A stretch of DNA of 24,000 nucleotides from Pseudoalteromonas rubra (GTDB lineage: Bacteria > Pseudomonadota > Gammaproteobacteria > Enterobacterales > Alteromonadaceae): positions 1,056,845 to 1,080,844 of the forward strand of contig NZ_AHCD03000044.1 of the NCBI RefSeq assembly GCF_000238295.3. The letters run 5' to 3'. Made by a program: the position numbers and the translations under genes. This document shows, piece by piece, positions 1-18,877 of the stretch (positions are counted from its first letter, which is position 1; each line of letters starts with the position of its first letter). A model generated the notes under the pieces. That model did not search any database and had not been told where the DNA came from. It saw only the letters and a program-made list of their open reading frames with translations.

Positions 1-117
1 AATTACGTTAAAACGGGCACCGAGTCGGATTGTATTGCGCAGGAAATTCGCAACATCATCTTTTATAGCGATAAACACCGTACCGAAGCTTGTCAGACGG
101 TATTGGATGAAGCGTAA
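1..117 (+). CDS. 3' end of an unidentified CDS entering from the left window edge (38 codons plus TAA)
   Basis: Frame 1 is open from nt 1 to TAA at 115-117 (NYVKTGTESDCIAQEIRNIIFYSDKHRTEACQTVLDEA*). No start lies in the window, and the fragment is too short for me to assign a family. Confidence 0.35.
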   Translation, partial: NYVKTGTESDCIAQEIRNIIFYSDKHRTEACQTVLDEA

Positions 118-428
118 AAGTGAATGGGACCGTTCTGCATTCAGACACCTGCACCTGATGCGGGATCTGTGAACAGGGTACACATTCACAAAGCAATGGG
201 AGCAGGACGATGGTTCCATTGCAAACAAAAATAAAGCAGTGAGTAACGGCGGTTTTGTATCGTATCCATTGCATTTTAAACGAATTTACTTGCTGTGTTT
301 TAGGACATGGAAAGTGAAAAAGGGCAAGTTAGGGTCTAGGCTTTACCTGACTTGGTGGGTTTAACAACTGTTTATGCCAACTGAATTTTTAACGACGTTG
401 GTACAATTCCAATCATAGAGGAAAAAAC

Positions 429-989
429 ATGACAGCGACAAAAACAGCGAAGGATGACAAGGCCACAACGGCTGCTGGCGCTGCTCCACAGCAGGAATCA
501 GCAAATGTTGAGGTTGAGAATCGCGAAGCCGTAGCACGTATTATTGTCGATAAGTACACCAAATGGTCTTTCGGTACGGGTCTGATCCCAGTACCAGCCA
601 TCGATTTGGTGGCCTTGACTGGTGTACAAATCAAGATGATCAGTGAGATTGCTCAGGTATATGGTCAGTCTTACAGCGACAATAAGATCCGCGGTACGGT
701 AAGTGCGGTGATTGGCGGCTCATTCCCACAGTCTTTGGGCGGTGCAGGACTTAGCAGTTTCTTAAAGTCGGTACCAATCATTGGCACGCTTAGCGCACTC
801 GCATTTATGCCAGTGGTATCAGCTGCATCTACAAATGCAGTAGGTTCTACGTTTATCCGACACTTCGAAAACGGCGGCACTTTGCTAGATCTTAATCTGG
901 CAAGCATTAAGGGAGACATCTCTGAAATTGCTGCTAAGTATCGAAAAGATAAAGGCAACAGCACTCAAGACAACCAAGCTACAGCGTAA
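429..989 (+). CDS. DUF697-like (YcjF-type domain) membrane-associated protein, 186 aa
   Basis: ORF-track ORF with GAGG about 8 nt upstream of the ATG. The core VDKYTKWSFGTGLIPVPAIDLVALTGVQIKMISEIAQVYG, followed by Gly/Ala/Ser-rich hydrophobic stretches, resembles the DUF697 pattern as I remember it. A hairpin terminator follows the stop. Confidence 0.6.
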   Translation: MTATKTAKDDKATTAAGAAPQQESANVEVENREAVARIIVDKYTKWSFGTGLIPVPAIDLVALTGVQIKMISEIAQVYGQSYSDNKIRGTVSAVIGGSFPQSLGGAGLSSFLKSVPIIGTLSALAFMPVVSAASTNAVGSTFIRHFENGGTLLDLNLASIKGDISEIAAKYRKDKGNSTQDNQATA

Positions 990-1007
990 GTTGAGAGGCT
1001 AAAACAC

Positions 1008-1040
1008 AAATAAACCAACGGCGTGTCTGTTGGTTTATTT
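1008..1040 (+). terminator. Rho-independent terminator after the DUF697-like gene
   Basis: Perfect 12-bp stem, aaataaaccaac (1008-1019) pairing with gttggtttattt (1029-1040), with a 9-nt loop. The 3' arm ends in a T-rich run. It starts 19 nt after the stop at 989. Confidence 0.6.
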
Positions 1041-1086
1041 GCTCATCGGTTAATTGGAACTGCTAGTCAGTTCAGAGGAGCAAATC

Positions 1087-1263
1087 ATGTTAGTTACTTT
1101 GTATCTGGTGTTATGTGTACTTTCTGGTTACTGGGGACGCAATACCTTTGCGGGTCCGGTTGGGTTTTTCTTTATTGGCCTGGTATTCACGCCGCTGGTG
1201 AGCTTGCTGGTGCTATTACTTGCCAAAACACGTCTGGCAGAGCCAAGAGAAGCGGAGGAATAA
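1087..1263 (+). CDS. small hydrophobic (two-TM-like) protein, 58 aa
   Basis: Internal ATG at 1087 of ORF 1054..1263 has AGGAG (1076-1080) 6 nt upstream. The product MLVTLYLVLCVLSGYWGRNTFAGPVGFFFIGLVFTPLVSLLVLLLAKTRLAEPREAEE has two hydrophobic segments and a charged tail. The 1054 start abuts the terminator and lacks an RBS. Confidence 0.4.
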   Translation: MLVTLYLVLCVLSGYWGRNTFAGPVGFFFIGLVFTPLVSLLVLLLAKTRLAEPREAEE

Positions 1264-1400
1264 CAGAAAATCCGGCATTGCCTAAATTCACTATTTGATT
1301 GTGACCAAAAAACAGGCAAGCTAAAAACAGAGGATGTAGATCCTCAAGATAAGATAACAAGGATTGCAGTTCTGACTGCGTCGTAGCGCTCAGTATTATG

Positions 1401-1428
1401 ACCAGTGGCGGACTTTCAGGCCACTGGT
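1401..1428 (+). promoter_or_regulatory. 9-bp perfect stem-loop 23 nt upstream of the ABC exporter start
   Basis: accagtggc (1401-1409) pairs with gccactggt (1420-1428) around a 10-nt loop. No T-tract follows, so it is not a classical terminator. It may be a 5'-UTR structure or a palindromic operator. Confidence 0.25.
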
Positions 1429-1451
1429 AACACAATGAAAAGACAATAAAA

Positions 1452-3113
1452 ATGGTATTATACGATTTAATAAGTCGAAACATTAAAATTAAAAAAAGGA
1501 CCTTTGTATTACTCGGTTGTATCTCTGGCCTTGCCAATGCACTGGTGCTTGCTCTTATCAACAACGTGGCAGAAAACATTTCTGATATCCACAAAGAAAA
1601 CCATGTATTTTACTACCTGGTGCTCTTTACCCTGACGGTGTTGATCTACGGATTAACCCAGCAGAGGTTAATGACTAAAGCCGCTAAAATGGTCGAAAAG
1701 TCCATTGATCATATGCGAGTTGAGCTATTCGAATCGGTTCGGCATACCGAGCTATCGACGCTTGAAAAAATTGGCAAGGAGCGAATTTTTAATACGCTCA
1801 GCAAAGAGCTGCAAACCATTTCTCAGTCTGCTCAGCTCTTTGTGATCATTGGTCAGTCTATCAGCCTGGTGTTTTTCACCTCATTGTATATTGCCTATCA
1901 CTCGGTGATGGCGTTTGTGGTTCTGAGTGTATTGATCATGTTGGGCGGCAGTATCCACCGCTTAAGGGCCAATGAAATTCAGCGTAATATGGCGCAGGCA
2001 TTTCAGAGCGAAAACCAGCTTATCCAGCGCTTGTCGGACTTGCTCGATGGTTTTAAAGAAGTAAAACTGAGCGCACCGAGAGCAGACGACCTGGAACACG
2101 AGTTTTCCCTATCCTCTGGCAAAGCGCGGCGCGCACAAACGGTGACCAAGACCTTGTTTGCGACCGACTTTGTCCTTTCTCAGATAACCTTTTTCGCTGC
2201 AACCGGTGCAATGGTGTTTTTTGTGCCAGTGTTATCAGATGTTTATCCGGAAGTGGTCATCAAGGTGACGACAGCCTCGTTGTTTTTAATCGGTCCGATC
2301 ACCAGTATTGTGGGTGGTATTCCAGTGTTCACTACGGCAACGGAAGCGGCGCAAAATGTACTGACACTTGAGGCAGACCTTAAACGGGAGCAAGCTGAAA
2401 ATACGGTACGGCGCAATACCCAGGTACAATCCATTGATAGCTTTGAGGAGTTAAGGCTTGAGGGCGCGTATTATCAACATAATCGTAAGCCTGGCGACAG
2501 GCCTTTCTTTGTCGGGCCGGTCGACCTAACGGTTAAAAGAGGACAAATTACCTTTATTACCGGTGGTAACGGCAGCGGTAAAACCACGTTTATTCGTATG
2601 TTAACCGGTTTATATGAGCTTCAGGCCGGACAAATCTTCCTCGACGGGCGCGCGGTTCACGACGCCGATCGAGAGAGCTTCCGCAGTATTTTTACCTCGG
2701 TCTTTGCGGATTTCCATTTGTTTAAACAGCTCTATGGGATCAAGACAACGTCACAGGAAGATATCGATGAATGGCTGACTTTTTTAGAAATGAACGCAAA
2801 GGTCAGTGTGATTGATGGAGAGTTCAGTACCATAGATCTTTCTTCCGGGCAAAGAAAACGCCTGGCACTACTCAGCACCATACTGGAAAATCGGCCGATT
2901 TATATTTTTGACGAATGGGCCGCCGATCAGGACCCAATATTCAGACGAAAATTCTATGAACAGGTATTGCCCAGGCTTAAGGCCCGTGGCAACACTGTGA
3001 TCGCAATTACACATGACGACGCCTATTTCCATCTGGCGGACGTGCATTTGAAGATGGTAGAAGGACAACTAATGGAACATCATGAAGTAGAAACAGATGG
3101 AGTACCGTCATGA
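1452..3113 (+). CDS. half-size ABC exporter (N-terminal permease fused to C-terminal ATPase), YojI / cyclic-peptide-transporter type
   Basis: 553 aa with an N-terminal multi-TM region. Walker A is GGNGSGKTT, the ABC signature is LSSGQRKRLAL, and Walker B is IYIFDEWAADQDP. The block DEWAADQDPIFRRKFY...AITHDDAYF parallels the C-terminal block of E. coli YojI as I remember it. There is no N-terminal C39 peptidase domain. Confidence 0.88.
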   Translation: MVLYDLISRNIKIKKRTFVLLGCISGLANALVLALINNVAENISDIHKENHVFYYLVLFTLTVLIYGLTQQRLMTKAAKMVEKSIDHMRVELFESVRHTELSTLEKIGKERIFNTLSKELQTISQSAQLFVIIGQSISLVFFTSLYIAYHSVMAFVVLSVLIMLGGSIHRLRANEIQRNMAQAFQSENQLIQRLSDLLDGFKEVKLSAPRADDLEHEFSLSSGKARRAQTVTKTLFATDFVLSQITFFAATGAMVFFVPVLSDVYPEVVIKVTTASLFLIGPITSIVGGIPVFTTATEAAQNVLTLEADLKREQAENTVRRNTQVQSIDSFEELRLEGAYYQHNRKPGDRPFFVGPVDLTVKRGQITFITGGNGSGKTTFIRMLTGLYELQAGQIFLDGRAVHDADRESFRSIFTSVFADFHLFKQLYGIKTTSQEDIDEWLTFLEMNAKVSVIDGEFSTIDLSSGQRKRLALLSTILENRPIYIFDEWAADQDPIFRRKFYEQVLPRLKARGNTVIAITHDDAYFHLADVHLKMVEGQLMEHHEVETDGVPS

Positions 3114-4267
3114 ATATAATCCTGCCTCCTGATCTGGCGCTCATAGGATTGGCGGCTGCCTGCCTGTTGATCCTCATTGCTAACCTGGTAATGCGGGCTC
3201 TCAGGCGCTACAAACCCGCATGGCGTAAACGCATATTGTCCTGGCGCTTCAGAGCTGGTTTAACCCTATTGATTTGTTTGTTCTTAGTCGTGGCGTTGGT
3301 TCCATTTATCTTTATCCGGGTTGACTCCGGTGAGATTGCTGTTTTGTGGAAGCGCTTTGGTGGAGGTACGTATCTGGATCAGCACTTTAGTGAAGGTACA
3401 GTTCTGGTTATGCCCTGGGATAAGTTGGTAATTTACAACGGACGTTTTCAGACTGCACATGAAAGCATAGATGCGATCACCAGCGAGGGTCTCAGAATCA
3501 CACTCAATGTCACAGTCAGGTATCGCCCTGTCATTGAGCATGTGCCTTATCTGCATCAGCTGGTAGGGCCCAGGTACCTGGAGGAGATGGTGTTACCTGA
3601 GGTGGCATCGGCGGTACGTATGATAGTGTCGCGCTATCGTGCTGAGCAGGTTTACAGTCATCAACGGATACAAGTGCAAAAAGAGCTGCTGGAAGAAGTG
3701 CTGCATGAACTACATCTTCAGGAAGAAACGATTTTAGAGCAAACCGGCCACATGAAAGATGGTCATACATTAGTTAATTTAGACGATATGCTGATCAAAC
3801 GTGTCGATGTGCCCGATAAGGTGCATGAGGCGATTATTTCTAAGGTAAATCAGAGTTACCTGAATGAGGAATACGCGATGCGGCTTGAAGTAGCAAAGAA
3901 AGAAGCGCAGCGTAAGAAAACAGAAGCACAGGGTATTGCCGATTTTCAGGAAACCGTGGCAGGCGGTATCTCGGAAACTTACCTGAGATGGCGCGGTATT
4001 GAAGCGACTATTGAACTGGCAAAATCAAACAATGCCAAAGTGGTTGTGATAGGGAGCGGCAAAGACGGGCTGCCGTTGATCCTGAATACAGAAAGCAGCT
4101 TGAATGGCTCTGCCCCTAACCTGGTTCAGGAAACAGCCAATTTAGTTAAAGCTGAGGAAGCAACAAGGCCTGTGCCTGACTACGTAAACAGCGTGATTAA
4201 ACCAGGTGAGCCTATGAGCACGCATCATATGAGCTCTGCAAAATCTGGAGAACCATTGCATAAGTGA
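3110..4267 (+). CDS. SPFH / band-7 (prohibitin, HflK/C-like) membrane protein, 385 aa
   Basis: The ATG overlaps the ABC stop (ATGA at 3110-3113). Two N-terminal hydrophobic segments are followed by the typical SPFH start GEIAVLWKRFGG...VLVMPWDKLVIY...ITSEGLRITLNVTVRYRP. A coiled-coil-like segment EEYAMRLEVAKKEAQRKKTEAQG comes next. Confidence 0.82.
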   Translation: MNIILPPDLALIGLAAACLLILIANLVMRALRRYKPAWRKRILSWRFRAGLTLLICLFLVVALVPFIFIRVDSGEIAVLWKRFGGGTYLDQHFSEGTVLVMPWDKLVIYNGRFQTAHESIDAITSEGLRITLNVTVRYRPVIEHVPYLHQLVGPRYLEEMVLPEVASAVRMIVSRYRAEQVYSHQRIQVQKELLEEVLHELHLQEETILEQTGHMKDGHTLVNLDDMLIKRVDVPDKVHEAIISKVNQSYLNEEYAMRLEVAKKEAQRKKTEAQGIADFQETVAGGISETYLRWRGIEATIELAKSNNAKVVVIGSGKDGLPLILNTESSLNGSAPNLVQETANLVKAEEATRPVPDYVNSVIKPGEPMSTHHMSSAKSGEPLHK

Positions 4268-4530: not shown

Positions 4531-4726
4531 TACCTACAAACGACTCGATATGCCAGATACCCATAGTGATGTCGTTGCCTATCGATCTTGTAAAGGGGCT
4601 TTACATTTTTTCAGAACGGGTGTGCAGAGCGGCGAGTTAAGGGCAGCAGCAGCATGGAAAACACAGGCTTGTTATGGAGAATGGCTGAAATGGTCGGATG
4701 ATGAGAGAAGAACAGTGTCTCATATG

Positions 4727-4747
4727 CAGGGCACTCAGCGTGCCCTG
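4727..4747 (-). terminator. hairpin downstream of the GG-leader peptide gene 1 (weak terminator candidate)
   Basis: cagggcac (4727-4734) pairs with gtgccctg (4740-4747) around a 5-nt loop, 12 nt past the minus-strand stop at 4759-4761. No clear U-tract follows on the minus strand. Confidence 0.3.
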
Positions 4748-4758
4748 TTGTAACCTGT

Positions 4759-4932
4759 TTATCTTGGGTTACAGGTATTCACTGGGTAGTAAGAAAAATA
4801 TGGGCAACCTTTCTGGACTCTGGTTGGTGGAATAGCCGTTGCACCACCTGCGATCATTGGTGTTTGATCTGAGTTCAGCGCGTTTTTATTGCCTAGGTTT
4901 TTTAGGTTCTTTTTACTTAGTTGTAACTTCAT
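4759..4932 (-). CDS. 57-aa double-glycine-leader peptide precursor (bacteriocin/RiPP/signal-peptide-like), not in the ORF track
   Basis: Hand translation gives MKLQLSKKNLKNLGNKNALNSDQTPMIAGG|ATAIPPTRVQKGCPYFSYYPVNTCNPR*. AAGGAG lies 6 nt upstream of the ATG (complement of 4939-4944). The leader aligns position for position with the second peptide at 11611..11775. The core has 2 Cys. Confidence 0.6.
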   Translation of the reverse strand: MKLQLSKKNLKNLGNKNALNSDQTPMIAGGATAIPPTRVQKGCPYFSYYPVNTCNPR

Positions 4933-5447
4933 GGAGATCTCCTTCTTCTGTTTAATAATTGTTCGGTAATATTGTTCTCACAAAGTACACTGAGTGTAAA
5001 TTGAAAGAATCTAATGTGTTAATTTTATTGTCTTGAATGGGGGGCTATTCAGTGTGTTGAGTTTCTAAATGATAGCTCGCAATTTACTGTTCTCTGTATG
5101 ATTTTAACGTACCAGCCTTTACATAGAGTTGGCCGGGGACAGAGGTTTTTACCACATCCATATTTTGTTCTTATTTTTTGGGTAATCTTTCGGGACGGTC
5201 TGAGGGAGCATTGTCTGCTTATGATTCGAGCTGTTACTGACGGTAATTACCAGCGCGGCGTTACGCTGCGCAGTAGTAAATATTCCGGGTGGGGATATTG
5301 CGCGTTTTTATGCGTCTGACAGTCATGGTTTGATAGTTCATTTGGCCTTTATTTTAAGGGTAAATAGAATAAATAAGTCTAGTCACTGGCCAGGGTAGCC
5401 TGAAAAGGTGGTCAGTATAAAAGACTGTAATTGAGAGTACTTGTATC

Positions 5448-5474: not shown

Positions 5475-6227
5475 CCTTAAGCGCCCGCACTATTACTAAC
5501 AAGCACATTTTTTTCATCGTACTATCGATTATTGGCGTGTTAAATTTAAACAATGCCATCATGCTATGGTTGTTTGACTTCCATCGCTTCCTGCACTCCC
5601 TTTTTGGGGAGTTATCAATATCGGGTTTCAGGCGTATATTTCTATGAGCCTAAACGGACAGCCCGGCACACCTTTATATGACTCAATAGCAACATAATGC
5701 TTATATTGGTGTAATTAAGCACTTTTGGTGGCCTGGCACTGGCAATATCGCTATAAAAGTGACTGTTTTGACCAAGCATCGCATTGCTGCCTTTAGGTAA
5801 GACCTGATATGAATGAAGGCCGAAGAAAAATAAAATTATCAAACACGGTGCAAAAAGGCACTTTGGTATGCGCGCTAATGCGTCCTTGGTTGCGAGTGCT
5901 GAATACATGTTTGTTGTCCTGAGTTGTCCACGCTAGTTGGGGTGGCCGCAATTAGAAATGCATTCTGGTATTTATAGCCAGAATAGTTAGGGCAGTGAGT
6001 TCTAAGCAGTTTGAGGGCATTTGCTGCGCTTGCATGGAACCTCGGGTTTTCGCCGGAGTCGAAAGCTGACACAAGCAAAGCGATGAAGTGAGCGATTATG
6101 GCACTCTGATGCCTGGCTAAATCGGGTGCTGGTTATCGCTAACCAGCGAGCTTGCAGATAATCAGCCTGGGGTTTTACAGGGCTTAGTATAAAGAATCCA
6201 GCTAAGTAAATTGAGCGTCAATAAGTA

Positions 6228-6268
6228 GGCCAACCACAGGGGATATACACTGGGTTGGCCACTTTTTT
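6228..6268. terminator. hairpin with flanking T/A tracts abutting the luxR-family stop (possibly bidirectional)
   Basis: ggccaacc (6228-6235) pairs with ggttggcc (6253-6260), extended by cag/ctg. tttttt (6263-6268) follows on the + strand. On the minus strand the hairpin lies immediately after the TAA of the 6267..6980 gene. Confidence 0.45.
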
Positions 6269-6980
6269 AAGGGATGAGCAAACTTTGCTTTGCTTTGAGT
6301 ACTGCCTCAGTTCTGTTGGCTGCACCCAGTTGACTAAGGATCTGGCTTACCAGCTCTTTAACTCTGTCTTTAGACACTTGCATCAGCTCAGATATTTCCG
6401 GGTTAGTCATCCCTTTGGCCATATATAGCAAACACTCGCTACTTTTTGGCGTTAAAGTGGGTCGCATAAATAAATAGTCAGGGCACTCTTTGATTATTCT
6501 GGGGATCAGAGTGAGTGTGATATCACTTAATATCGTACTATGTTGATGATAAACAGATTTTATTTCATCACATGTTTGGCTGGAAAAGAAATTCACCAAT
6601 ACAATTGCGCCGCCATAATGAACAGGTATGACTATGCCGCCATTGATATTCTCCTGAGCTAACAGGTTGCCTAATGTTTTTGGCGCAAGCGTTGCGCTTT
6701 GGTAGTCATGAGTGCTCCAAAAGCGCGGTGCCAGTGTTTGCTGGCAGTAGTCGATCAGGTCATCAGAAAAACAATGTCCATCTGTAAAGTAAGCGCGAAG
6801 GAATTGTTCGGAACAAGTAGAAAGATACCTGAAAACGGGCTCGGTGCCATTCACCCCAACAATGAGAAACTGGTCCATACCTAGTGGTTCTGAAAATCGG
6901 CTTAGAGCGGTAGTGATGGCTGTCTCCGGATACAATGCAAAGGCATCCGGGTGGCTGATTTTGTTACCTGAGTAGTCCAT
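6267..6980 (-). CDS. LuxR-family transcriptional regulator (solo), with an N-terminal ligand-binding-like domain and a C-terminal LuxR/GerE HTH
   Basis: 237 aa, with AGGAG 5 nt upstream of the ATG. The C-terminus LTPKSSECLLYMAKGMTNPEISELMQVSKDRVKELVSQILSQLGAANRTEAVLKA is a typical LuxR/FixJ HTH. The N-terminal ~170 aa is the right size for an autoinducer-binding domain, but I cannot confirm the signature residues. No luxI-type gene is in the window. Confidence 0.8.
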   Translation of the reverse strand: MDYSGNKISHPDAFALYPETAITTALSRFSEPLGMDQFLIVGVNGTEPVFRYLSTCSEQFLRAYFTDGHCFSDDLIDYCQQTLAPRFWSTHDYQSATLAPKTLGNLLAQENINGGIVIPVHYGGAIVLVNFFSSQTCDEIKSVYHQHSTILSDITLTLIPRIIKECPDYLFMRPTLTPKSSECLLYMAKGMTNPEISELMQVSKDRVKELVSQILSQLGAANRTEAVLKAKQSLLIP

Positions 6981-7312
6981 ATAAACTCCTGTGTGCTTTT
7001 TTTAATGTTGCAGGTTCTGTTTTCTCGTTCTGCACCCTTAAGCTAATGAGTTTTGAGAACTACCTGTTATGAGAAAAGCGACACCGAGTACTGCAAAAGC
7101 GACATTTATAATTGTTAGTATAAAAAACAATGTCTTATTGGTTTTTCTTGTTGGTATGGGACGACTTTGGATGTTTGATTATTGTGCAAATCAAAAAGCT
7201 CACGCTTTTTTGATGAATTCTGTTGGCAAATTTTTAACAAATCAGTTGACTGTACCTGATAAAGGTTATAGAAAGTAATTACGCATTTTACAGTAAGGAC
7301 GTAAGCGTAATA

Positions 7313-10300
7313 ATGTTAAGTAGGATACTGGCAACGATCTTGTTGCTTATCGTGCACTGTCAGGCGCTGGCAGAATCGCCAAACCAACTGAGGTTACATC
7401 CGTTAGACGTTGATAAACTGGATATGGTCACTGTGATCAATTCTGTCACTCAGGATAGTCAGGGCTATTTGTGGGTCAGTGGTATTTCTGGTGTACTAAA
7501 ATTTGATGGTTATCACTCTATCTTTTACCCGCTTGAACAAGCCAGAAAAGTGATAGAAGACGCGCAGGGAAGAAGGTGGCTTCTGACTGGCAATGGCCTG
7601 TATCTATACTGTCATGTAACGGACAAGTTCAACCGTTACCTGAGCGACATGCATCAGGACGATATGCATAATAGCTCCTTATTCCGGGACAGCTATAGCA
7701 TTGTTCGACGTATTGATAGTAAAACCTTTCGTCCAACTGAGTTGTATCAGGATAGTCAGAATAAGCTTTGGCTGGTGGGTGACGATGGGCGTTTGATATA
7801 CTTTTCGGCTGATCAGGAACAATATGAAAGTTATGACTTTCCCAGTTCAATAATTCAACATAACCTGCGTTTTGGTATTACATTTTTCAATGATCTGCCA
7901 TTGTTTGTATCTAAAGATGGCAAAGTGTATAGCCTGGATAAAACAACAGGCTCATTTTACGTGTTGTTTCAAGATAACAGGCTGGTGAACACCAGAATTG
8001 TGACTACAGGCCTTTCGAACACTGTGCATCTTGTGTCAGATCATGGTCTTTTCATACTCGACTTGTCAAAACCAAGTCCGCAGTCGCTGACAAAACTAGA
8101 TATCGACCCGCGTTCTATCACCTCTGTTCATGTTGGGCACCATGCTACATTTATAGGTACAAATAAATCGCTTATTGTGTTGGACGCAGACAATCATGTT
8201 AATCGCGTGAGCAGTTATTATTCTGATGGCCTTCAGCAAAATATATTCGGAGTCCAAAATGTGTTTGACGATGAGCGTGCTGTTTGGCTCTCTACAAGTA
8301 AGGGGGTGTACCAGGTAAAGTTTGCACAAACAACACAGGCAAATGGATATGTTAAGGCATCACTGAACGCAACAAAAATGCCGATGATTGAAAGCTTGCT
8401 TGTAGATAAGCGTGACAACCTCTGGATTGTCAGCCAGCGCAAAGTTTACCTGAAAAAAGCAAATACAGGACTAACGGAAGCTATCGAGCTCGATGCTAAT
8501 CGAACAGATGTGCAAGTCCAAACCGTTTTTGAAACCAGAGATGGATCCGTTATGTTCGGAGGGGTGTCGGAGTTGTATCAATATGACATAGAGCGACAGC
8601 GTTTCAGGAGAATACCACTACCGCTAGACCCGGCTAAGATGGGCAAGGAAGTTAGGGACATAGAGCAATCTGAAAATGGTCACTTGTGGTTGCTTACCTT
8701 TCAGGGGGTCGCTGAATATATACCAGCTAAAAACGAAATCGTGTCTTTTCAGCCAGGTCATTTTAAAAACCTGAAAAAAGGTCCCAATGGCACCGTTTTG
8801 GCCTGTGGTTTTGAAACTTACACCCTCGGCAAAGGTAAAGCAGAAAAAGTAGATTTTCAGTTAGAAGAATCAATTAAACATTTAGTTGTATACGATGCGT
8901 CAGTAGACCAAAGTGGGAGATTATGGGCAGCAACTTCACACGGACTATTGCTGCATGAACTGGACACTAAAAGTACTCGAAAACTCGATTTAAACGGCGT
9001 TTATCCCAATGTGGTTTTTGCTTTTACCTACCGGGATAACGGGGGGCACATCTGGCTGATTGATATGACTAATATATACAAAGTTGAGCCAGAGACAATG
9101 GAAGTCGTTTATACAGAACCCGTCAAGCGACTGAACATTGGTGCGAAGACCTATGGTAGCGTGTCGGAGTCATCTTCGGGCACCTTGTTTCTTGGTGGCG
9201 TTAGTGGATTTGCCGCGCTTGAAAATACCACAACCATTGCACCTTATGGTGTGCACTTCAGCCGTGTCATTGTTCAAGGACAAAGTTATCCTGTATATCA
9301 AGCAGAACCCGGGTTGGTAAATACGATTTCTCTAGGCACTGAATTTACGAGTGCGCAAAGAAACGTAAAGTTTGAGTTTGTAAATATTAAACGTGACCCT
9401 AATGTTGATATTTACTATAAATATCGTTTAATTGGGTTTGATTATGAGTGGACAGAAGTTGACCAAACTCAGCGTAATGCAACTTATACTAACCTGCCAT
9501 CAGGTGATTACGAATTTGTAATAAAAAGTCGCTCAATTTCGAGTGAATGGACTGAGTCTAGATTTAAATTTTCCATTGCAACTCCTTACTATTTAACTGT
9601 TTGGGCATTTCTGTTTTATGCGGTATGTTTGATATTACTCATCGCATTAATATTGATTGTTAGAACACATCAGCTGAAACGGCACAATCTTCAACTTGAA
9701 ACACAAGTTCGGGCACGCACAGAGGAAATTGAACAAAAGCGGGTGCAAATTGCCAATCTAATGGAAAGCAAGAACAAACTCTTCGGCAATATTTCACACG
9801 AATTACGCACGCCCTTATCTGTAATCATGCTGCCAATAAAAAGCATGCTAAAACAGAACCCGGACAAAGAAAATATCAGATGGCATGCCGCATATTCTCA
9901 GGCTGTCCGGCTGGAAAAATTAATTGATAATTTGATCCGTTATGCGAGGAAAGACAACTTCGCACCGCCTGAAAATCACCAGTTTACTGCCAGGGTCGTG
10001 CTAATGAAGCAGATACAGGCTTTTGATCTGCTTGCACATGAGAAACAGATCAAGATAAAAACAGACATATGTCTGACCTGTCAGGAAGTTGTGCTTAACG
10101 AAGCCGATTTTGAGCAGGTTGTGACAAACCTGTTGTCTAATGCGGTGAAATATACGCCAGATGGAGGAATAATTCAGGTTTGTGCACAGCAAAAAGGTAA
10201 TATGCTGGTGCTGATGTTTACGAACTCGGGACCCGGTATAGAGCCTGCACTTCAGGCGGACATATTTAAACGTTATGTGCGTGGCACACACAATGACATA

Positions 10301-11290
10301 GCAGGGCAGGGAATTGGATTATCTGTGGTTCATCAGTTGATATCTGGGTGCGGTGGCGCAATTGAACTGACCAGTGAGCCCGGGCAAGGTTGTCTGTTTA
10401 CCTTACATATCCCAATTTTTCTTAACTCGCATAATGAGTTTTATCAAAAAGATCTCTCAGCAATCCAAGACAATGCGTCTGAATCGGAAAGCGCGGATAC
10501 ATTAGAACGAATTTTAATTGTTGAGGATAACCCCGATCTCAGAATGATGTTAAATGAGGCGCTATCGGTCTGGTTTAATTGCACGGTAGCCGGGGATGGC
10601 GAACAAGGCCTGGCAATGGCAAAGAACATTTTACCGGACCTGATAGTCAGTGATGTCATGATGCCGGTTATGACAGGTCTTGATATGTTACGTGCGGTTA
10701 AACAAGACGAAATGACCAGCCATATTCCTGTTGTGTTGCTCACAGCCAAAGAAGATGATGCCAGTCGTATCATTGGATTTGAAGCTGAAGCAGATGATTA
10801 TATGGGCAAGCCATTTGATATCGATGTATTGAGAATTCGAATTGAAAACCTGATCAAGGGTCGCAAGAAGCTGGCACATTTATATCGGCATCATATTTTG
10901 CACGGCGAGGATATAGCGCAGGCCCGTCAAGAAGATAAACGTGTACCTTTTATAGATAAGCTACATCATGTGATCGCACAACATTATCAGAACCCGGAGT
11001 TTGATACTGAGCACATGGCCAGTCTGGTATTTTTGAGTACCAGACAGCTACAGCGTAAATCAAGGAGTCTAACTGGGTTATCACCTATTGCTTTGCTCAG
11101 ACAATACAGGCTACAGCAGGCCTGTAAACAGCTCAGAGCCGGGGCTTTGGTAGCTGACGTAGCCTATCAGGTGGGCTTTTCCTCTCCGGGTTATTTTAGT
11201 AGTTGTTTTAAAGCTGAGTTTAGCTTGTCTCCACAGCAGTATGTCAGGCAATTTGCCAAAGCGGCTTATGAGGATGAGGCGGGTCAGTGA
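7313..11290 (+). CDS. hybrid two-component system sensor kinase/response regulator (propeller repeats, Y_Y_Y, TM, HisKA, HATPase_c, REC, AraC HTH)
   Basis: 1325 aa.
- Signal/TM: MLSRILATILLLIVHCQALA.
- Repeated QD/ED..G.LW..G..GL motifs typical of two-component regulator propeller repeats.
- Y_Y_Y-like segment: YKYRLIGFDYEWTEV...YTNLPSGDYEFVIKS.
- TM: YLTVWAFLFYAVCLILLIALILIV.
- H-box: FGNISHELRTPLS.
- N and G boxes: NLLSNAVKYTPDGG and GQGIGLSVV.
- REC: ILIVEDNPDL...LIVSDVMMPVMTGLD...LLTAK.
- AraC HTH: VAYQVGFSSPGYFSSCFKAEF. Confidence 0.92.
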   Translation: MLSRILATILLLIVHCQALAESPNQLRLHPLDVDKLDMVTVINSVTQDSQGYLWVSGISGVLKFDGYHSIFYPLEQARKVIEDAQGRRWLLTGNGLYLYCHVTDKFNRYLSDMHQDDMHNSSLFRDSYSIVRRIDSKTFRPTELYQDSQNKLWLVGDDGRLIYFSADQEQYESYDFPSSIIQHNLRFGITFFNDLPLFVSKDGKVYSLDKTTGSFYVLFQDNRLVNTRIVTTGLSNTVHLVSDHGLFILDLSKPSPQSLTKLDIDPRSITSVHVGHHATFIGTNKSLIVLDADNHVNRVSSYYSDGLQQNIFGVQNVFDDERAVWLSTSKGVYQVKFAQTTQANGYVKASLNATKMPMIESLLVDKRDNLWIVSQRKVYLKKANTGLTEAIELDANRTDVQVQTVFETRDGSVMFGGVSELYQYDIERQRFRRIPLPLDPAKMGKEVRDIEQSENGHLWLLTFQGVAEYIPAKNEIVSFQPGHFKNLKKGPNGTVLACGFETYTLGKGKAEKVDFQLEESIKHLVVYDASVDQSGRLWAATSHGLLLHELDTKSTRKLDLNGVYPNVVFAFTYRDNGGHIWLIDMTNIYKVEPETMEVVYTEPVKRLNIGAKTYGSVSESSSGTLFLGGVSGFAALENTTTIAPYGVHFSRVIVQGQSYPVYQAEPGLVNTISLGTEFTSAQRNVKFEFVNIKRDPNVDIYYKYRLIGFDYEWTEVDQTQRNATYTNLPSGDYEFVIKSRSISSEWTESRFKFSIATPYYLTVWAFLFYAVCLILLIALILIVRTHQLKRHNLQLETQVRARTEEIEQKRVQIANLMESKNKLFGNISHELRTPLSVIMLPIKSMLKQNPDKENIRWHAAYSQAVRLEKLIDNLIRYARKDNFAPPENHQFTARVVLMKQIQAFDLLAHEKQIKIKTDICLTCQEVVLNEADFEQVVTNLLSNAVKYTPDGGIIQVCAQQKGNMLVLMFTNSGPGIEPALQADIFKRYVRGTHNDIAGQGIGLSVVHQLISGCGGAIELTSEPGQGCLFTLHIPIFLNSHNEFYQKDLSAIQDNASESESADTLERILIVEDNPDLRMMLNEALSVWFNCTVAGDGEQGLAMAKNILPDLIVSDVMMPVMTGLDMLRAVKQDEMTSHIPVVLLTAKEDDASRIIGFEAEADDYMGKPFDIDVLRIRIENLIKGRKKLAHLYRHHILHGEDIAQARQEDKRVPFIDKLHHVIAQHYQNPEFDTEHMASLVFLSTRQLQRKSRSLTGLSPIALLRQYRLQQACKQLRAGALVADVAYQVGFSSPGYFSSCFKAEFSLSPQQYVRQFAKAAYEDEAGQ

Positions 11291-11610: not shown

Positions 11611-11775
11611 TTAATCGGGCAAGGTACATGTAAGGATATTGCCATTGGAGTCGATTGGTGTTCCAGCAGCATCCTGGTTAGTAGCGCCCCCCTGGACAAG
11701 TGGCGTTAACTTGCTTTGTAGACCCGTTTTAGTAGATAAAACCTTTAATTTTTTTGCTTTGAGGTTAAGTTTCAT
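11611..11775 (-). CDS. 54-aa double-glycine-leader peptide precursor, paralogue of 4759..4932, not in the ORF track
   Basis: Hand translation gives MKLNLKAKKLKVLSTKTGLQSKLTPLVQGG|ATNQDAAGTPIDSNGNILTCTLPD*. AAGGA lies 7 nt upstream of the ATG. The leader matches peptide 1 at MKL.L..K.LK.L..K..L.S..TP....GGAT, with GG at residues 29-30 in both. The track's + strand ORF 11639..11851 is antisense to it. Confidence 0.6.
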   Translation of the reverse strand: MKLNLKAKKLKVLSTKTGLQSKLTPLVQGGATNQDAAGTPIDSNGNILTCTLPD

Positions 11776-14324: not shown

Positions 14325-14713
14325 TCATCCCGTGCAAAGCTCCGTAGCTTCACCTTGGTTAACAAGACTTTAGCCTGACCCGGGCCATGGAGCTCGCATC
14401 TTCACCCCAGCTAAGTAGCCCATTGTGCCATTCTAGTCATAGCACCCGCAGCGTCACTCTGGCCACCGAGCCCGTAGCGTGATCCCGGCCATGGAGTTCG
14501 CATCTTCACACCAGCCAAGTAACCCATCGTGCCATCCGAGTCATAGCGCCCGCAGCGAAACTCAGGCCAACGAACCCGCAGCGTCTGCCCGGCCAACGAG
14601 CCCGTAGCGTCATCCCGGCGAACGAGCCCATAGCGTCTTCCCGGCCAACGAGCCCATAGCGTCTGCCCGGCCAACGAGCCCGTAGCGTCATCCCGGCCAA
14701 CGAGCCGGGAACC
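14325..14713. repeat. composite intergenic tandem-repeat array ending in the REP-like hairpin
   Basis: Two ~105-bp units (14379-14483 and 14484-14587, clearly alignable) follow a degenerate third copy starting at about 14325. Four 26-bp units CCCGGCCAACGAGCCCGTAGCGTCAT come next (14588-14613, 14614-14639, 14640-14665, 14666-14691). A terminal unit CCCGGCcaacgaGCCGGGaacc (14692-14713) restores a perfect 6-bp stem. The units are contiguous with no spacers. Confidence 0.85.
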
Positions 14714-15195: not shown

Positions 15196-15804
15196 GTGAT
15201 GTCTGACTCCACATTAGAATACTACAGCCGCAACGCAGTCAGTTTTGCAGAGGCAACCTTCGCGGTAGATATGCAGCCGCTGTACGACGTGTTTTTACCT
15301 GCCATATCCAAAGGCGGTAAAATCCTCGATGCCGGTTGCGGCTCAGGCCGCGATGCACTGGCGTTTAAAAACCTCGGCTACCGGGTGGAAGCCTTCGATG
15401 CCTGCGCCGAACTGGCCAACATCGCCAGCTTCCACCTGGAACAACCCGTAGGCTGCTTCAGTTTCGACGAACTCAGAGACATCAACACTTATGACGCTAT
15501 CTGGTGCTGCGCAAGCCTGTTACATGTCCCCATGGCAGAGCTCCCGGCGGTTTTTCAGCGCCTGCAAAACGCACTCAAACCAGAAGGCATAATCTATATC
15601 TCGTTTAAATACGGTGAAGGCGAACGCACTACAGATGGCCGCGCATTCACCGATCTCACAGAGCAAAGCCTGAGCGCCTTACTTGCCCAAAACACCGGTC
15701 TTAAAGCCTGCAAAACCTGGCAAACCGGCGACCAACGCCCCGGCCGCGAACACAAACGCTGGCTCAATGCTTTGTTGGAAAGGGTGGGGGCTGGGTCAGG
15801 CTGA
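15196..15804 (+). CDS. class I SAM-dependent methyltransferase (small-molecule/protein type)
   Basis: 202 aa, starting at GTG 15196 or the adjacent ATG 15199. Motif I is KILDAGCGSGRDALAF, followed by an acidic post-I residue (VEAFDA) and then DAIWCCASLLHVP...LKPEGIIYISF. No DNA-methyltransferase motifs (DPPY/NPPY or PC...ENV) are seen. The gene is notably GC-rich, about 60% in one hand-counted 60-nt line. Confidence 0.82.
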   Translation: MMSDSTLEYYSRNAVSFAEATFAVDMQPLYDVFLPAISKGGKILDAGCGSGRDALAFKNLGYRVEAFDACAELANIASFHLEQPVGCFSFDELRDINTYDAIWCCASLLHVPMAELPAVFQRLQNALKPEGIIYISFKYGEGERTTDGRAFTDLTEQSLSALLAQNTGLKACKTWQTGDQRPGREHKRWLNALLERVGAGSG

Positions 15805-15953: not shown

Positions 15954-17567
15954 ATGCGTTTAAAAGAAGCTTTAAGTGTTTTATCTAAGTCTTCACCTTA
16001 TTCAGTATCCACTCTAAGAACAGGTGAACAACCTGAAGACTACAAATATAAAGAGTACTTATACATTAAGCCTCAAATTGCAATTGACTTTGAAGCTTTG
16101 TTACTTGATAGCCCTGAAGGTAGCCTCTTGTTTTTGTGTGGTAGCTCAGGGGATGGTAAGTCAGAAATCCTAACTCGGCTTTGTAATAAACCCGAATTTC
16201 AAGATGTAGTATTTCATTTAGATGCCACTCATGGAAAAACCCAACACGGTACAGCGGTTGAAAGCCTTGATGAGCTGTTTGATGAACAGAAGCAACAACA
16301 ACATAAACTCGCTGTCGGTATTAATATTGGTATGTTCCAAAAGTTTATTAAGTTTGGCTCTGATAAGCATAGCGACATTAAAGTGCTATTTTCTAAATTT
16401 TTAGAAAATAGACATGAAAAAGGGTATCAAATAGAGAATGCATATTTTTATGATTTTGAAAGTTACCCAAGATTGCATTTCGATAAAGGCGGTGTGAAAT
16501 CTGAGTTTGTTTTTTCTTACTTAAAAAACTTAACAAAAGAATGTGACTCTAATCCATTTTACGAATTATATCTTTCAGAAAAAGAGAAAGAAAATCAGAT
16601 AGCTTATAACTTTCAAATAATAAGTTTGTCAGAATTTCAAAGTGCGCTTGTTTACTTATTTGGCCTGATTAGGTTGCATGATGAGCAATTTCTAATCCCT
16701 AGACTTTTTGTTGATTTTATTTATCAATTAATCACAACAGAAAATGATGACGGAATAATTGGTAATATTTTCACGTGCCTAGATAACCAGCTTTCGGAAA
16801 AAATAGTTGGTCAAGACCCGCTCCAATCCAGTAGCCAAAAGCTTGATAGCTTTTTACTCGCGCTAGCAACCGGTTCGTTAAGTGAAAATACTCTTGAAAG
16901 CATTAACTATCTTCAAAAAATGGCTGGTTGTAAGCTAAGCAAAAATAATCTAATTAGGTTTGCGTGGGTTTTAAATAAAGAGTTAGGTGACCTCTATCCT
17001 GAAAGTCAGTTAAACAATTTAATTAATAATGAAGTCTTAGAAAGTTACTGCGCTCTTTATGAAATACTTATTAAAAGTGAGTTTAACGAGGAAGAGGTAG
17101 ATTTATTAATCGGTATTTTAGAAGAAAATTTACTGGCTGATGTAGCTAACTATGTAAATAGAAAAGTTAATACCGATGTCAGTGGCTTTGTGATCAGTCG
17201 AGAACTAAAAGACTTTGCTATTTGTAACAAAATAGAAGCGGAAATAGACCTCGATTGGCTAGAGGAAAATAAACTAAAAGCTCCAGATATAATGCCAATA
17301 CGGTTTTTAGTTAATGGCGATGAGGCTGTTACTTTAAACCTTGATATAAAAGTATTTACTCTCATAAGAAATATCCAAAACGGGTACTTGCCAAACAGAA
17401 ACTTGCATAATGAGTACACAAAACTCGAAGAGTTTATATCTGAGTTAATCGCTGCTACTTCAAAGGCTAAGGAAGTGCGAATTATAGATAAAAAAGCGCA
17501 AGGTACTTTCTATGCTGAAGCAAAAAAGAGTCGTAGAGGCTACACAGTGGTAGGTGACTTCAAATGA
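15954..17567 (+). CDS. dptF: P-loop NTPase, DptF/DndF-like (candidate first gene of a phosphorothioation-dependent-restriction-like cassette)
   Basis: 537 aa, with AGGA 6-9 nt upstream of the ATG. Walker A GSSGDGKS is at aa 63-70 (nt 16140-16163), and a possible Walker B is VVFHLDATH. The gene is AT-rich and overlaps the next gene by ATGA. The Dpt assignment rests on size, P-loop position and three-gene synteny, not on a homology search. Confidence 0.6.
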   Translation: MRLKEALSVLSKSSPYSVSTLRTGEQPEDYKYKEYLYIKPQIAIDFEALLLDSPEGSLLFLCGSSGDGKSEILTRLCNKPEFQDVVFHLDATHGKTQHGTAVESLDELFDEQKQQQHKLAVGINIGMFQKFIKFGSDKHSDIKVLFSKFLENRHEKGYQIENAYFYDFESYPRLHFDKGGVKSEFVFSYLKNLTKECDSNPFYELYLSEKEKENQIAYNFQIISLSEFQSALVYLFGLIRLHDEQFLIPRLFVDFIYQLITTENDDGIIGNIFTCLDNQLSEKIVGQDPLQSSSQKLDSFLLALATGSLSENTLESINYLQKMAGCKLSKNNLIRFAWVLNKELGDLYPESQLNNLINNEVLESYCALYEILIKSEFNEEEVDLLIGILEENLLADVANYVNRKVNTDVSGFVISRELKDFAICNKIEAEIDLDWLEENKLKAPDIMPIRFLVNGDEAVTLNLDIKVFTLIRNIQNGYLPNRNLHNEYTKLEEFISELIAATSKAKEVRIIDKKAQGTFYAEAKKSRRGYTVVGDFK

Positions 17568-18877
17568 ATGAACATTTAATTCAATCAAAAAATAGGGTTA
17601 GTAGTAACTATAAAAATAACGCAGCTCGTTATCTCCCAATAGGTCCTAGTTTACCTACAGCACAAAACTTGAACTGGAATATTGTTTATAAAAGCTTATG
17701 CCGAAATATATTTTCACTTGAATGCAATATACAGACACGAAAAGAGTTTTATGAAAATATATTAAGAGACATTAAAGAGAATAGGCATACAAAAGATTTA
17801 GCTACAATTATTGAAAAAGTTTACTTTGAAAATACTGAGTCTTTTGAAATTACACCATACTCTAGGCTTATAAATAGCGAAAAAGTACATGCCAGAACTA
17901 AAACAATGGTAGATGTGTTTGATGCTATGCTGTGCGGCTTAACTACTGAAAATGTAGATTTTATAGGCAATAATTTTCTCGAAGAGATAGTAAATAATAC
18001 TGCTAAGCAATTGTGTAATGAAATTGTAAAAATTAAATCAAAGGCTCCATATTTGCCGTTTTTAGCAAAAAAATGCCAAGAAGATTTTTCATTTATTAGC
18101 GCGAGGCCTGAATTACTCAATGAGTCAATGGAACATCTTATAGAGATATACGCCTTTTTATACATTACTCAGTTATCACTTCATTTATATTCTCCTAAAT
18201 TACGTTTCAGTGAGCCAACCAGTCAGGAAATGTACTTTATCTTAGAAGGAGAAAAAGCAAGTAAAGAACGACACTTTACATTTTTAAAAGGTTACAAAAG
18301 GGTTTTTGAAAAAGATGTAGGAGCTAGTTATGATATTTTTCCTCATTTAGGTTACTTAGAGTTAATTGCAACCGAACCTCTTTGGGCTGTAAGTCAACAA
18401 GCCCATGAACAAGTTTTTATTGACCAAATAAACGAATTGAATTCCTCATTTTGTAATGAGTTTAATATTCACTTTGCTGGAAATCGCACCTCTTTTGAAG
18501 ACGCTATAAATGATGGGTTGACCTATCATAAAGAAATTTTTAAAGAAAATAACAAAAAGTCAGAGCGTTACAGAGCTAATCAAATGGTTTGTACTGCTGC
18601 AACAACTAATTTTGCTAGTAACTTTAAAGTCAATAAAGGCAGAGCTGGTGGTTGGTACTTCCAGTTATCAACTAAGACAGTATTACTTATCACGAATCTA
18701 ATTATTGGAAATAAGAAAAAGCTATTAATCGATGATGTAGTTGAAGGCTTTAATGAGCGTGGGATTTATTTCGATCTCAAATCTAAACAAGCACTTTTAG
18801 CGATTTATGAAAATATCGGAAATGTAATTAAATTAAGTGATAGTGGGGATGCAGTGTATGTCACAAGTACCATTTGA
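17564..18877 (+). CDS. dptG: 437-aa protein of unknown biochemical function, DptG/DndG-like by position and size
   Basis: It is translationally coupled on both sides, with ATGA at 17564-17567 and a 20-nt overlap with the next ORF. I recognise no catalytic motif. Its size and middle position match DptG. Confidence 0.55.
   Translation: MNEHLIQSKNRVSSNYKNNAARYLPIGPSLPTAQNLNWNIVYKSLCRNIFSLECNIQTRKEFYENILRDIKENRHTKDLATIIEKVYFENTESFEITPYSRLINSEKVHARTKTMVDVFDAMLCGLTTENVDFIGNNFLEEIVNNTAKQLCNEIVKIKSKAPYLPFLAKKCQEDFSFISARPELLNESMEHLIEIYAFLYITQLSLHLYSPKLRFSEPTSQEMYFILEGEKASKERHFTFLKGYKRVFEKDVGASYDIFPHLGYLELIATEPLWAVSQQAHEQVFIDQINELNSSFCNEFNIHFAGNRTSFEDAINDGLTYHKEIFKENNKKSERYRANQMVCTAATTNFASNFKVNKGRAGGWYFQLSTKTVLLITNLIIGNKKKLLIDDVVEGFNERGIYFDLKSKQALLAIYENIGNVIKLSDSGDAVYVTSTI

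Follow-up and report, generated by a model that had tools for sequence, protein, structure and literature searches.

A stand-alone double-glycine-leader peptide gene of Pseudoalteromonas rubra, a candidate class I lanthipeptide precursor modified in trans

A short open reading frame (ORF) lies on the minus strand of a 24,000-nt stretch of Pseudoalteromonas rubra DNA (assembly GCF_000238295.3, contig NZ_AHCD03000044.1, positions 1,056,845 to 1,080,844), which was analyzed as a whole and is called the window below. The frame, designated pep1, reads as a peptide precursor with a leader ending in Gly-Gly. The locus raises the question of whether such an isolated frame is a gene and, if so, what becomes of its product. 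Our comparisons indicated that pep1 is almost certainly a genuine double-glycine-leader peptide gene. Judged from sequence, its product is probably a stand-alone class I lanthipeptide precursor that is modified and exported in trans.

The coding sequence spans 4759..4932 (minus strand), 57 codons from an ATG start to a TAA stop at 4761–4759, and translates as MKLQLSKKNLKNLGNKNALNSDQTPMIAGGATAIPPTRVQKGCPYFSYYPVNTCNPR. Six nucleotides ahead of the ATG at 4932 is a ribosome-binding site, AAGGAG (4939..4944, minus strand), of which AAGGA was kept in the orthologs. Residues 1–30 (4843..4932, minus strand; MKLQLSKKNLKNLGNKNALNSDQTPMIAGG) form a leader with Gly-Gly at its end, as identified by a hidden Markov model (HMM) of the leader family and by homology to a precursor leader of P. 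citrea. Residues 31–57 (4762..4842, minus strand; ATAIPPTRVQKGCPYFSYYPVNTCNPR) form the predicted core, which contains the module T-x5-C-x3-S-x5-T-C; the point of cleavage between the two is putative.

Downstream of the stop codon was a stem-loop at 4727..4747 (minus strand), with an 8-bp G+C-rich stem and a 5-nt loop (CAGGGCAC-GCTGA-GTGCCCTG). The 66 nt around it folded at -24.9 kcal/mol, compared with -13.0 +/- 2.8 kcal/mol for shuffled sequences (z = -4.25; none of 200 shuffles was as good). The stem covaried across orthologs, with compensatory changes that preserved the pairing, and it is a probable terminator. A consensus terminator scan made no call at this stem-loop, because no U-run follows the stem. 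The initial annotation of this DNA had described the minus-strand AAGGAG-N6-ATG start, the 57-aa peptide, a hairpin after the stop and two Cys residues spaced by 11. All four were recovered: the translation matched exactly, the hairpin had the folding score and covariation just given, and the Cys pair was found at precursor residues 43 and 54.

The exact protein had no entry among 5.8 billion proteins. The same search returned four 57-aa relatives of 73–91% identity, all from Pseudoalteromonas. The labels given to orthologs elsewhere were 'hypothetical protein' and, for one of them, 'Bacteriocin' (UniRef). The gene had initially been called unannotated, which held for this genome and at least for P. 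ardens R96, whose DNA encodes the identical peptide, but not for the orthologs of 73–91% identity that are annotated elsewhere. Use of a family profile and a scan of genomes extended the orthologs to P. ardens (100% identical), P. luteoviolacea, P. obscura, P. rubra, and the strains sp. R3 and sp. XMcav2-N. This brought the orthologs to at least eight Pseudoalteromonas species, with identities of 68–100% and two genomic contexts. The scan of the genome collection with the family alignment yielded orthologs and close paralogs only, because one single N-terminal pattern was used. The window DNA was 91–94% identical to the P. rubra and P. ardens loci. There was no DNA match in a plasmid collection, no match among PDB sequences at E <= 10, and no Rfam family within the window.

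The pattern of substitution was that of a coding sequence. In a codon alignment of five orthologs, the pairwise ratio of nonsynonymous to synonymous substitution rates (dN/dS) was 0.05–0.15, with synonymous sites saturated in the more distant pairs. Orthologs differed at 15–37 third codon positions, compared with 3–6 second positions. A real small gene, to be recognized by conservation with a synonymous bias, was what the initial annotation had proposed, and both the bias and the retention of the frame in at least eight species bear this out. The predicted core was constrained at least as much as the leader, whose middle part was less conserved than the core. Against 12,821 six-frame ORFs, the leader HMM matched pep1 with E = 6.7e-15.

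Upstream of the gene was a conserved block of about 47 nt (4970..5016, minus strand), CATTAG-ATTCTTTCAATTTACAC-N9-TTTGTG-N2-AACAATA, which on the basis of its conservation we interpret as a putative promoter/operator. Two sigma-70-like promoter matches occurred immediately upstream of pep1 on the same strand, and the promoter-like call within the block was TTTACA-18-AACAAT, with a -35-like and a -10-like element. The consensus over 12 distinct ortholog regions was (C/T)ATTA(A/G)(A/T)-TTCTTTCAATTTACAC-N9-TT(T/G)TGTG-N2-A.(A)AATA. The block was essentially invariant despite saturation of the coding third positions, and its conservation exceeded that of the coding sequence. The 17-mer ATTCTTTCAATTTACAC (4994–5010), which includes the -35-like TTTACA, was identical in 16 of 18 sequences (17 ortholog loci and the window) and had one mismatch in the other two. 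Its distance to the pep1 ATG was always 59–61 nt, including in P. luteoviolacea, where the flanks are different. No second copy was found in the window or in the loci scanned (all except L030–L032), and in the scanned loci, with up to three mismatches allowed, there was no match upstream of paralogs or of the modification and export locus described below.

In one P. luteoviolacea strain (locus L006), all the flanking genes were different, and the promoter block, the ORF and the hairpin were all present. This suggested that pep1 moves as one complete monocistronic unit.

The leader placed pep1 in a large family with the pattern MKLxLNKKxxKNLS...TPQxAGG. When 1.84 billion cluster representatives were searched with a profile, 559 proteins matched at E <= 0.001. 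Among 150 matches listed, almost all were 40–90 aa long, with the consensus leader MKLKLNKKKLKNLSKDNKALPADMTPQVAGG followed by a highly variable core. Cys was present in 132 of 137 family cores among the listed matches and made up 10.7% of their residues; Ser and Thr together made up 17.9%. The family included members from Thalassomonas actiniarum and T. viridans. The Gly-Gly at residues 29–30 was invariant in all pep1 orthologs and paralogs. Canonical double-glycine leaders have hydrophobic residues at -4, -7, -12 and -15, and pep1 agreed with this motif at -4 (Ile) and -12 (Leu) but departed from it at -7 and -15.

One orphan member of the family, P0018 (L012/L013, 9266–10192), with a TCGMGWTC-type core, was found in P. 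obscura and a strain related to it directly beside genes for the sheath, tube and spike tip of a contractile injection system. A Pfam scan of the neighbours of orphan members (L006, L010, L012 and L024–L026) found no radical SAM, YcaO or other enzymes for peptides that are ribosomally synthesized and then modified after translation (RiPPs).

Relatives of the pep1 leader were found beside lanthipeptide enzymes. In P. phenolica (P0028, locus L009), genes for LanB and LanC were grouped with three or four precursors carrying the family leader, an ABC exporter with a Peptidase_C39 domain, and its HlyD-type partner; this cluster adjoined glmU and the atp operon. At the same locus in P. citrea (L030), one 70-aa family-leader precursor lay between the exporter and LanC genes. 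The pep1 leader was homologous to the leaders inside both clusters, all of them belonging to one HMM family, and was 48% identical and 71% similar to that of the P. citrea precursor (BLASTP E = 4e-07). The P. citrea lanthipeptide precursor PciA has been dehydrated and cyclized by PciBC in Escherichia coli, with no additional tRNA supplied (PMC9993889). From its position in the cluster, the 70-aa gene would be PciA or its ortholog in this strain; the mass numbers in the supplement legend for PciA fitted no AspN fragment of this 70-aa peptide.

These neighbours bear on the initial annotation of the pep1 leader. It had described a double-glycine leader of the kind found in class II bacteriocins, many RiPP precursors and some pheromones. 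The N-terminal 30 residues are such a leader, with family members adjoining C39-peptidase ABC exporters and HlyD partners. The nearest kin, on the other hand, are class I lanthipeptide precursors and not unmodified class II bacteriocins.

The enzymes and exporter were also present in relatives that carry pep1. Orthologs of the P. phenolica exporter were more than 85% identical across the genus. Its 90%-identity cluster listed P. rubra (three proteins), P. ardens, sp. R3, P. luteoviolacea, P. obscura and sp. XMcav2-N, and all six names also carry pep1 orthologs. The gene order was glmU, HlyD, C39 exporter, LanC, LanB in each of three strains, two of P. rubra and one of P. luteoviolacea (L028 8726–16699 in P. 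rubra S4059; also L031 and L032). The domains identified were LANC_like in LanC, Lant_dehydr_N and Lant_dehydr_C in LanB, and Peptidase_C39 in the exporter beside HlyD. The C39 transporter and HlyD partner that the initial annotation had suggested seeking were therefore found in related genomes, among them that of S4059, which has a pep1 ortholog (P0001). In S4059 the pep1 ortholog and the enzyme locus were on different replicons (CP045430 and CP045429), the former on chromosome II and the latter, adjoining glmU, on chromosome I. Lanthipeptide clusters have been listed for this strain (PMC7917724). None of the ortholog loci had a gene for LanB, LanC or a C39 exporter at 10 kb or less from pep1.

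The gap between the exporter and LanC genes was 182–197 bp in these three genomes; this is the site of the precursor genes in P. citrea and P. phenolica. No leader-like ORF was found within 10 kb of the S4059 enzyme locus (leader HMM, E <= 10). The enzymes were nevertheless intact and constrained: dN/dS between the two P. rubra strains was 0.013 for LanC, 0.040 for LanB and 0.009 for the exporter. Identity between P. rubra and P. citrea was 73% for LanB, 62% for LanC and 89% for the exporter. LanC kept the motifs GLAHG, WCYG and CHG, which from knowledge of NisC we take to be those of the zinc site. A set of enzymes maintained with no precursor in the exporter–LanC gap would need substrates encoded elsewhere, and the dispersed leader-bearing genes would be the obvious candidates for a locus so poor in precursors.

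The core sequences were compared for signs of the chemistry. In core numbering, pep1 has Thr2, Thr7, Ser17 and Thr23 together with Cys13 and Cys24. All 12 divergent cores compared (pep1 orthologs, two paralog types of R3, three P. luteoviolacea types and the TCGMGWTC types) fitted an 18-residue module, T-x5-C-x3-[ST]-x5-[ST]-C. Only Thr1, Cys7 and Cys18 of the module were invariant. Positions 11 and 17 were occupied by Ser or Thr only, with a Ser/Thr swap observed at position 11, and all other positions varied freely. The sub-motif [ST]-x5-[ST]-C also occurred in the cores of the type of pep2 (a second family gene of the window, described below) and in the LanBC-linked precursors of P. phenolica (TCGMGYTC) and P. 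citrea (TGNQYGSC).

In a wider set, all 47 family cores examined had Cys, which made up 8.9% of residues in the cores and 0.3% in the leaders. Relative to Cys, Ser/Thr was enriched at -7 (z = 10) and -1 (z = 6.3) when compared with shuffles, values that are inflated because the sequences are related.

A disulfide leaves the fixed Ser/Thr positions unexplained, and rings explain all five fixed positions. This favours thioether rings over a disulfide, and the module pattern thus favours, rather than proves, a lanthipeptide. The initial annotation had suggested 'a disulfide or other cross-link'. On the basis of the conserved Thr/Ser, the second part of that suggestion, in the form of a thioether, appears likelier, and the disulfide named first less likely. 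The computed monoisotopic masses of the core, for cleavage at Gly30, were 3042.484 Da unmodified, 3040.469 Da with a disulfide, and 3006.463, 2988.453 and 2970.442 Da with two, three and four dehydrations.

We therefore consider it probable, as said above, that pep1 encodes a lanthipeptide precursor served in trans. Since its leader is common to the substrates of LanBC, LanB would be expected to bind the pep1 leader. LanB would recognize this shared leader and dehydrate Thr and Ser residues of the core. LanC would then join Cys13 and Cys24 to these dehydrated positions, most likely closing rings from Thr7 to Cys13 and from Ser17 to Cys24 (core numbering). The C39 exporter with HlyD would cut after Gly30 and secrete a 27-residue peptide with two rings. 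The deep conservation of the core, together with the private promoter, suggested one specific conserved target rather than the role of a fast-evolving bacteriocin. What we infer from these patterns comprises the trans recognition of the leader, both rings, the site of cleavage and the role of the peptide.

Several observations weigh against this interpretation. pep1 lies apart from lanBC, and a class I precursor is usually identified by lying beside those genes, although the chemistry does not require it. The genomes in which LanBC and the exporter were seen are all of other P. rubra strains or related species. Diverged leader-like ORFs are present 4–6 kb upstream of the exporter, beyond glmU, in P. 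luteoviolacea and in the second of the P. rubra strains, so that the locus is not free of precursors everywhere. The strong conservation of the pep1 core is atypical for antibiotic lanthipeptides. The leader has Thr at -7 and Lys at -15 in place of the canonical hydrophobic residues, a deviation common to the whole Alteromonadales leader family. Nothing in Pfam or NCBIfam scored above threshold for pep1 or ten relatives: PF14406 gave E = 0.058 on pep1 (14.1 bits against a cut-off of 25), and NF038158 gave no match to pep1 and E = 0.07–0.2 on the relatives (11.8–13.3 bits against a cut-off of 27). The inflation of the Ser/Thr enrichment scores counts here too. The cleavage sites of characterized relatives are themselves unconfirmed (PMC11270710).

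The P. luteoviolacea locus L031 had, about 4 kb upstream of the exporter, two diverged leader-family ORFs that were near a transposase gene.

The strongest alternative is that the pep1 product is not modified, or is merely disulfide-bonded. It would then be a toxin resembling class II bacteriocins or a plain secreted peptide, exported by the C39 transporter with no involvement of LanB and LanC, and the two Cys would be joined by a disulfide formed either extracellularly or in the periplasm. The leader end at Gly-Gly and the presence of the exporter are as expected from this, as are the two invariant Cys, the position of the gene apart from lanBC, and the UniRef name 'Bacteriocin' on one ortholog. 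C39 exporters also handle unmodified peptides, the textbook examples being class II bacteriocins and colicin V. The module, however, is harder to accommodate: over the 12 cores, a disulfide would leave the invariant Thr1 and the Ser/Thr-only positions 11 and 17 without explanation, and [ST]-x5-[ST]-C recurs in precursors encoded beside LanBC. Nor does this alternative account for the strong constraint on LanBC when the exporter–LanC gap has no precursor and S4059 has none within 10 kb. Moreover, no immunity-like gene accompanies pep1. We regard an unmodified peptide as rather unlikely.

A further alternative concerns the role of the peptide and is compatible with either biosynthetic route. The pep1 product, modified or not, may be a signal that is sensed by, or controlled by, the adjacent LuxR-type solo (6267..6980, minus strand) or hybrid sensor kinase (7313..11290, plus strand; 1325 aa with response-regulator and AraC domains). 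The evidence for it came in part from a second member of the leader family in the window.

This second gene, pep2 (11611..11775, minus strand), encodes the 54-aa MKLNLKAKKLKVLSTKTGLQSKLTPLVQGG-ATNQDAAGTPIDSNGNILTCTLPD with one Cys and has its own ribosome-binding site; the leader HMM matched it with E = 2.7e-12. An 11-bp hairpin follows its stop, and it is convergent with the hybrid sensor kinase gene. Its product is identical to P0013, 'PRUB_b1161 [Pseudoalteromonas rubra]'. Six-frame scans found further leader-family paralogs in related loci.

The window kinase was only about 60% identical to its positional counterparts in six related loci, which were 83–93% identical among themselves. The genes flanking the kinase were 84–100% identical across these loci, and the N-terminal sensor part of the kinase was only 36–53% identical. 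Alongside this divergent kinase allele, the pep2 core of the window was of a different type from that in the related loci. Taken together, the window kinase and pep2 look like a cassette of kinase and peptide that exists in different alleles. P. rubra S2599 has another kinase gene of the same architecture (L024 5611–9726, minus strand), with Reg_prop, Y_Y_Y, HisKA, HATPase, REC and AraC domains, which was divergent from a tandem array of three or four family peptides with Cys-rich cores (L024 9998–10796, plus strand). From the arrangement of these genes, window pep2 and the S2599 array look like instances of a recurrent pairing of peptide and sensor.

For pep1 itself, the order LuxR solo–pep1 was conserved through the P. 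rubra/ardens/R3 group, and the unusually conserved core with its private promoter would suit a ligand with a fixed receptor. Family members were found beside propeller-type hybrid sensor kinases twice independently (pep2 and the S2599 array), the divergent kinase allele of the window (about 60% against 83–93%) accompanied a different pep2 core, and characterized relatives had no antimicrobial activity (PMC11270710). The co-variation with the kinase, on the other hand, concerns pep2 and not pep1, for which adjacency is the sole evidence. The LuxR solo and hybrid kinase flank pep1 in only a part of the P. rubra group; they were absent near it in P. luteoviolacea and in the P. rubra loci L008 and L021, so that a linkage of pheromone and sensor did not extend to all carriers. 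No conserved lux-box-like palindrome was found upstream of pep1, and an ACACT-C-AGTGT repeat present in the window was not conserved. A signal tied to these neighbours is less likely still than an unmodified peptide.

It is very improbable that the neighbouring ABC exporter and SPFH protein carry the pep1 product as their cargo. The exporter gene (1452..3113, plus strand) matched the 'cyclic peptide export ABC transporter' family TIGR01194 with E = 2.3e-104, the SPFH/Band 7 gene (3110..4267, plus strand) has a start that overlaps the exporter stop, and both are within 500 bp of pep1. The exporter, however, lacks a C39 peptidase domain, is convergent with pep1, and belongs to an adjacent non-ribosomal peptide synthetase (NRPS) cluster with genes for the NRPS, TauD, a beta-lactamase-fold protein and DUF697. 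It is therefore not the processing exporter. In P. luteoviolacea, moreover, pep1 occurs without it, and we rejected the pair as the export system of pep1. The weakest alternative, a chance intergenic frame coding for nothing, has the shortness of the ORF and the absence of the exact protein from the large collection in its favour, and it was refuted by the substitution pattern (dN/dS 0.05–0.15, saturated synonymous sites, 15–37 third-position against 3–6 second-position differences), the retention of the frame in at least eight species and two contexts, and the paralogs with the same leader, leaving it a practically negligible probability.

A lanthipeptide precursor served in trans would have known counterparts. 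Viridisins, thalassomonasins and pseudorosins are class I lanthipeptides with double-glycine leaders (PMC9680876, PMC11270710, PMC12819058). Thalassomonasins and viridisins (VdsA1-3) were characterized from Thalassomonas (PMC9680876), and the pseudorosins PsfA1-3 came from P. flavipulchra (PMC12819058). Like pep1, these peptides and PciA have Lys/Asn-rich Gly-Gly leaders and cores rich in Cys and Ser/Thr with [ST]-x5-[ST]-C, and the set of LanB, LanC, C39 exporter and HlyD is common to the genus. They differ in being encoded beside lanBC, whereas pep1 stands alone and, in S4059, on the other chromosome. The pep1 core has no sequence relationship to the published ones, and it is conserved across species rather than hypervariable. 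Homology of the leader groups pep1 with the class I lanthipeptide precursors that have double-glycine leaders in Pseudoalteromonas and Thalassomonas, with a dispersed layout that is unusual for class I.

A dispersed layout is a property of the prochlorosins, class II lanthipeptides of Prochlorococcus and Synechococcus. There, one synthetase, ProcM, serves many dispersed ProcA genes with a conserved leader and diverse cores; the enzyme is a bifunctional LanM and the leader is of the Nif11 type. The pep1 system would be similar in having one modification locus for scattered precursor genes that share a leader and vary in their cores, and is different in its separate LanB and LanC (class I) and in its unrelated leader. 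To our knowledge, a multi-substrate arrangement in trans has so far been established only for the class II prochlorosins. A limited literature search found no report of a dispersed arrangement for class I systems or for Pseudoalteromonas.

Two other groups share features with pep1. The double-glycine RiPP leaders of Bacteroidetes, represented by PF14406 (Bacteroid_pep) and by NF038158 (lant_leader_L1b, a model for class I lanthipeptide leaders), have the same MKKxxLNKxxIxxL...GG shape and association with C39 exporters. The Alteromonadales family, with the sub-threshold scores given above and its own TPQ(V/I)AGG end, falls outside both. Class II bacteriocins and microcins of the colicin V/CvaAB type have leaders of about 15–18 residues, adjacent immunity and export genes, and cores that are unmodified or disulfide-bonded. 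They resemble the model proposed for pep1 in that a C39 ABC exporter, paired with an HlyD-type protein, removes the Gly-Gly leader in a Gram-negative cell; their leaders are shorter than that of pep1 and unrelated to it in sequence.

In the pigmented clade (P. rubra, P. ardens and P. luteoviolacea), a dispersed class I system can be tentatively envisaged, though it is more doubtful than the modification of pep1 itself. The locus beside glmU would serve stand-alone precursors on both chromosomes, and some of the peptides would be signals. This locus may have lost the precursor gene between exporter and LanC, and each scattered precursor may have its own promoter. Two patterns point toward a signal role: the invariance of the pep1 core and promoter, and the pep2-type genes that change with the kinase allele like a ligand-receptor cassette.

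If pep1 is indeed modified in trans, a lanBC locus poor in precursors would not be cryptic or decaying, but would be the hub of a multi-substrate system. Off-site precursors are invisible to genome mining, because the tools look beside the enzymes. The characterized lanthipeptides of marine Gram-negative bacteria were all without antimicrobial activity (PMC11270710). For the question of their role pep1 offers a good entry, with a core fixed across species, an invariant promoter element for finding the regulator, and relatives beside sensor kinases. The analysis also yielded a defined 27-residue target with predicted masses, and a leader profile that retrieves hundreds of similar peptides that are unannotated or labeled 'hypothetical'.

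The remainder of the window contained the following. Positions 1–4267 (plus strand) are the edge of the NRPS cluster. This edge includes, ahead of the exporter and SPFH genes, a DUF697 protein gene (429–989, plus strand) and a gene for a conserved 58-aa membrane protein (about 1087–1263, plus strand). In related loci, a beta-lactamase-fold protein, TauD and an NRPS of about 4000 aa were encoded beyond the DUF697 side. The small ORFs at 4550–4753, 5098–5319, 5642–5908 and 7069–7278 had no family match and no leader motif. In strain R3, paralogs are located between pep1 and the SPFH gene; no remnants of them were found in the window.

Tandem repeats occupied 14371–14706, in the intergenic region after a BNR_4-like gene, with a 26-bp unit (5.5 copies, 89% matches) within a 104-bp unit. 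They had short matches in related loci and gave spurious ORFs with WPGRRYGL-like translations. Further downstream, a small SAM-methyltransferase gene (15196–15804) lay just upstream of consecutive genes for DndF (E = 1.8e-147), DndG (E = 1.6e-130) and DndH (E = 0) at 15954–24000 (plus strand). These three genes are the restriction module of a DNA-phosphorothioation defence system, and the DndH gene runs past the end of the window.

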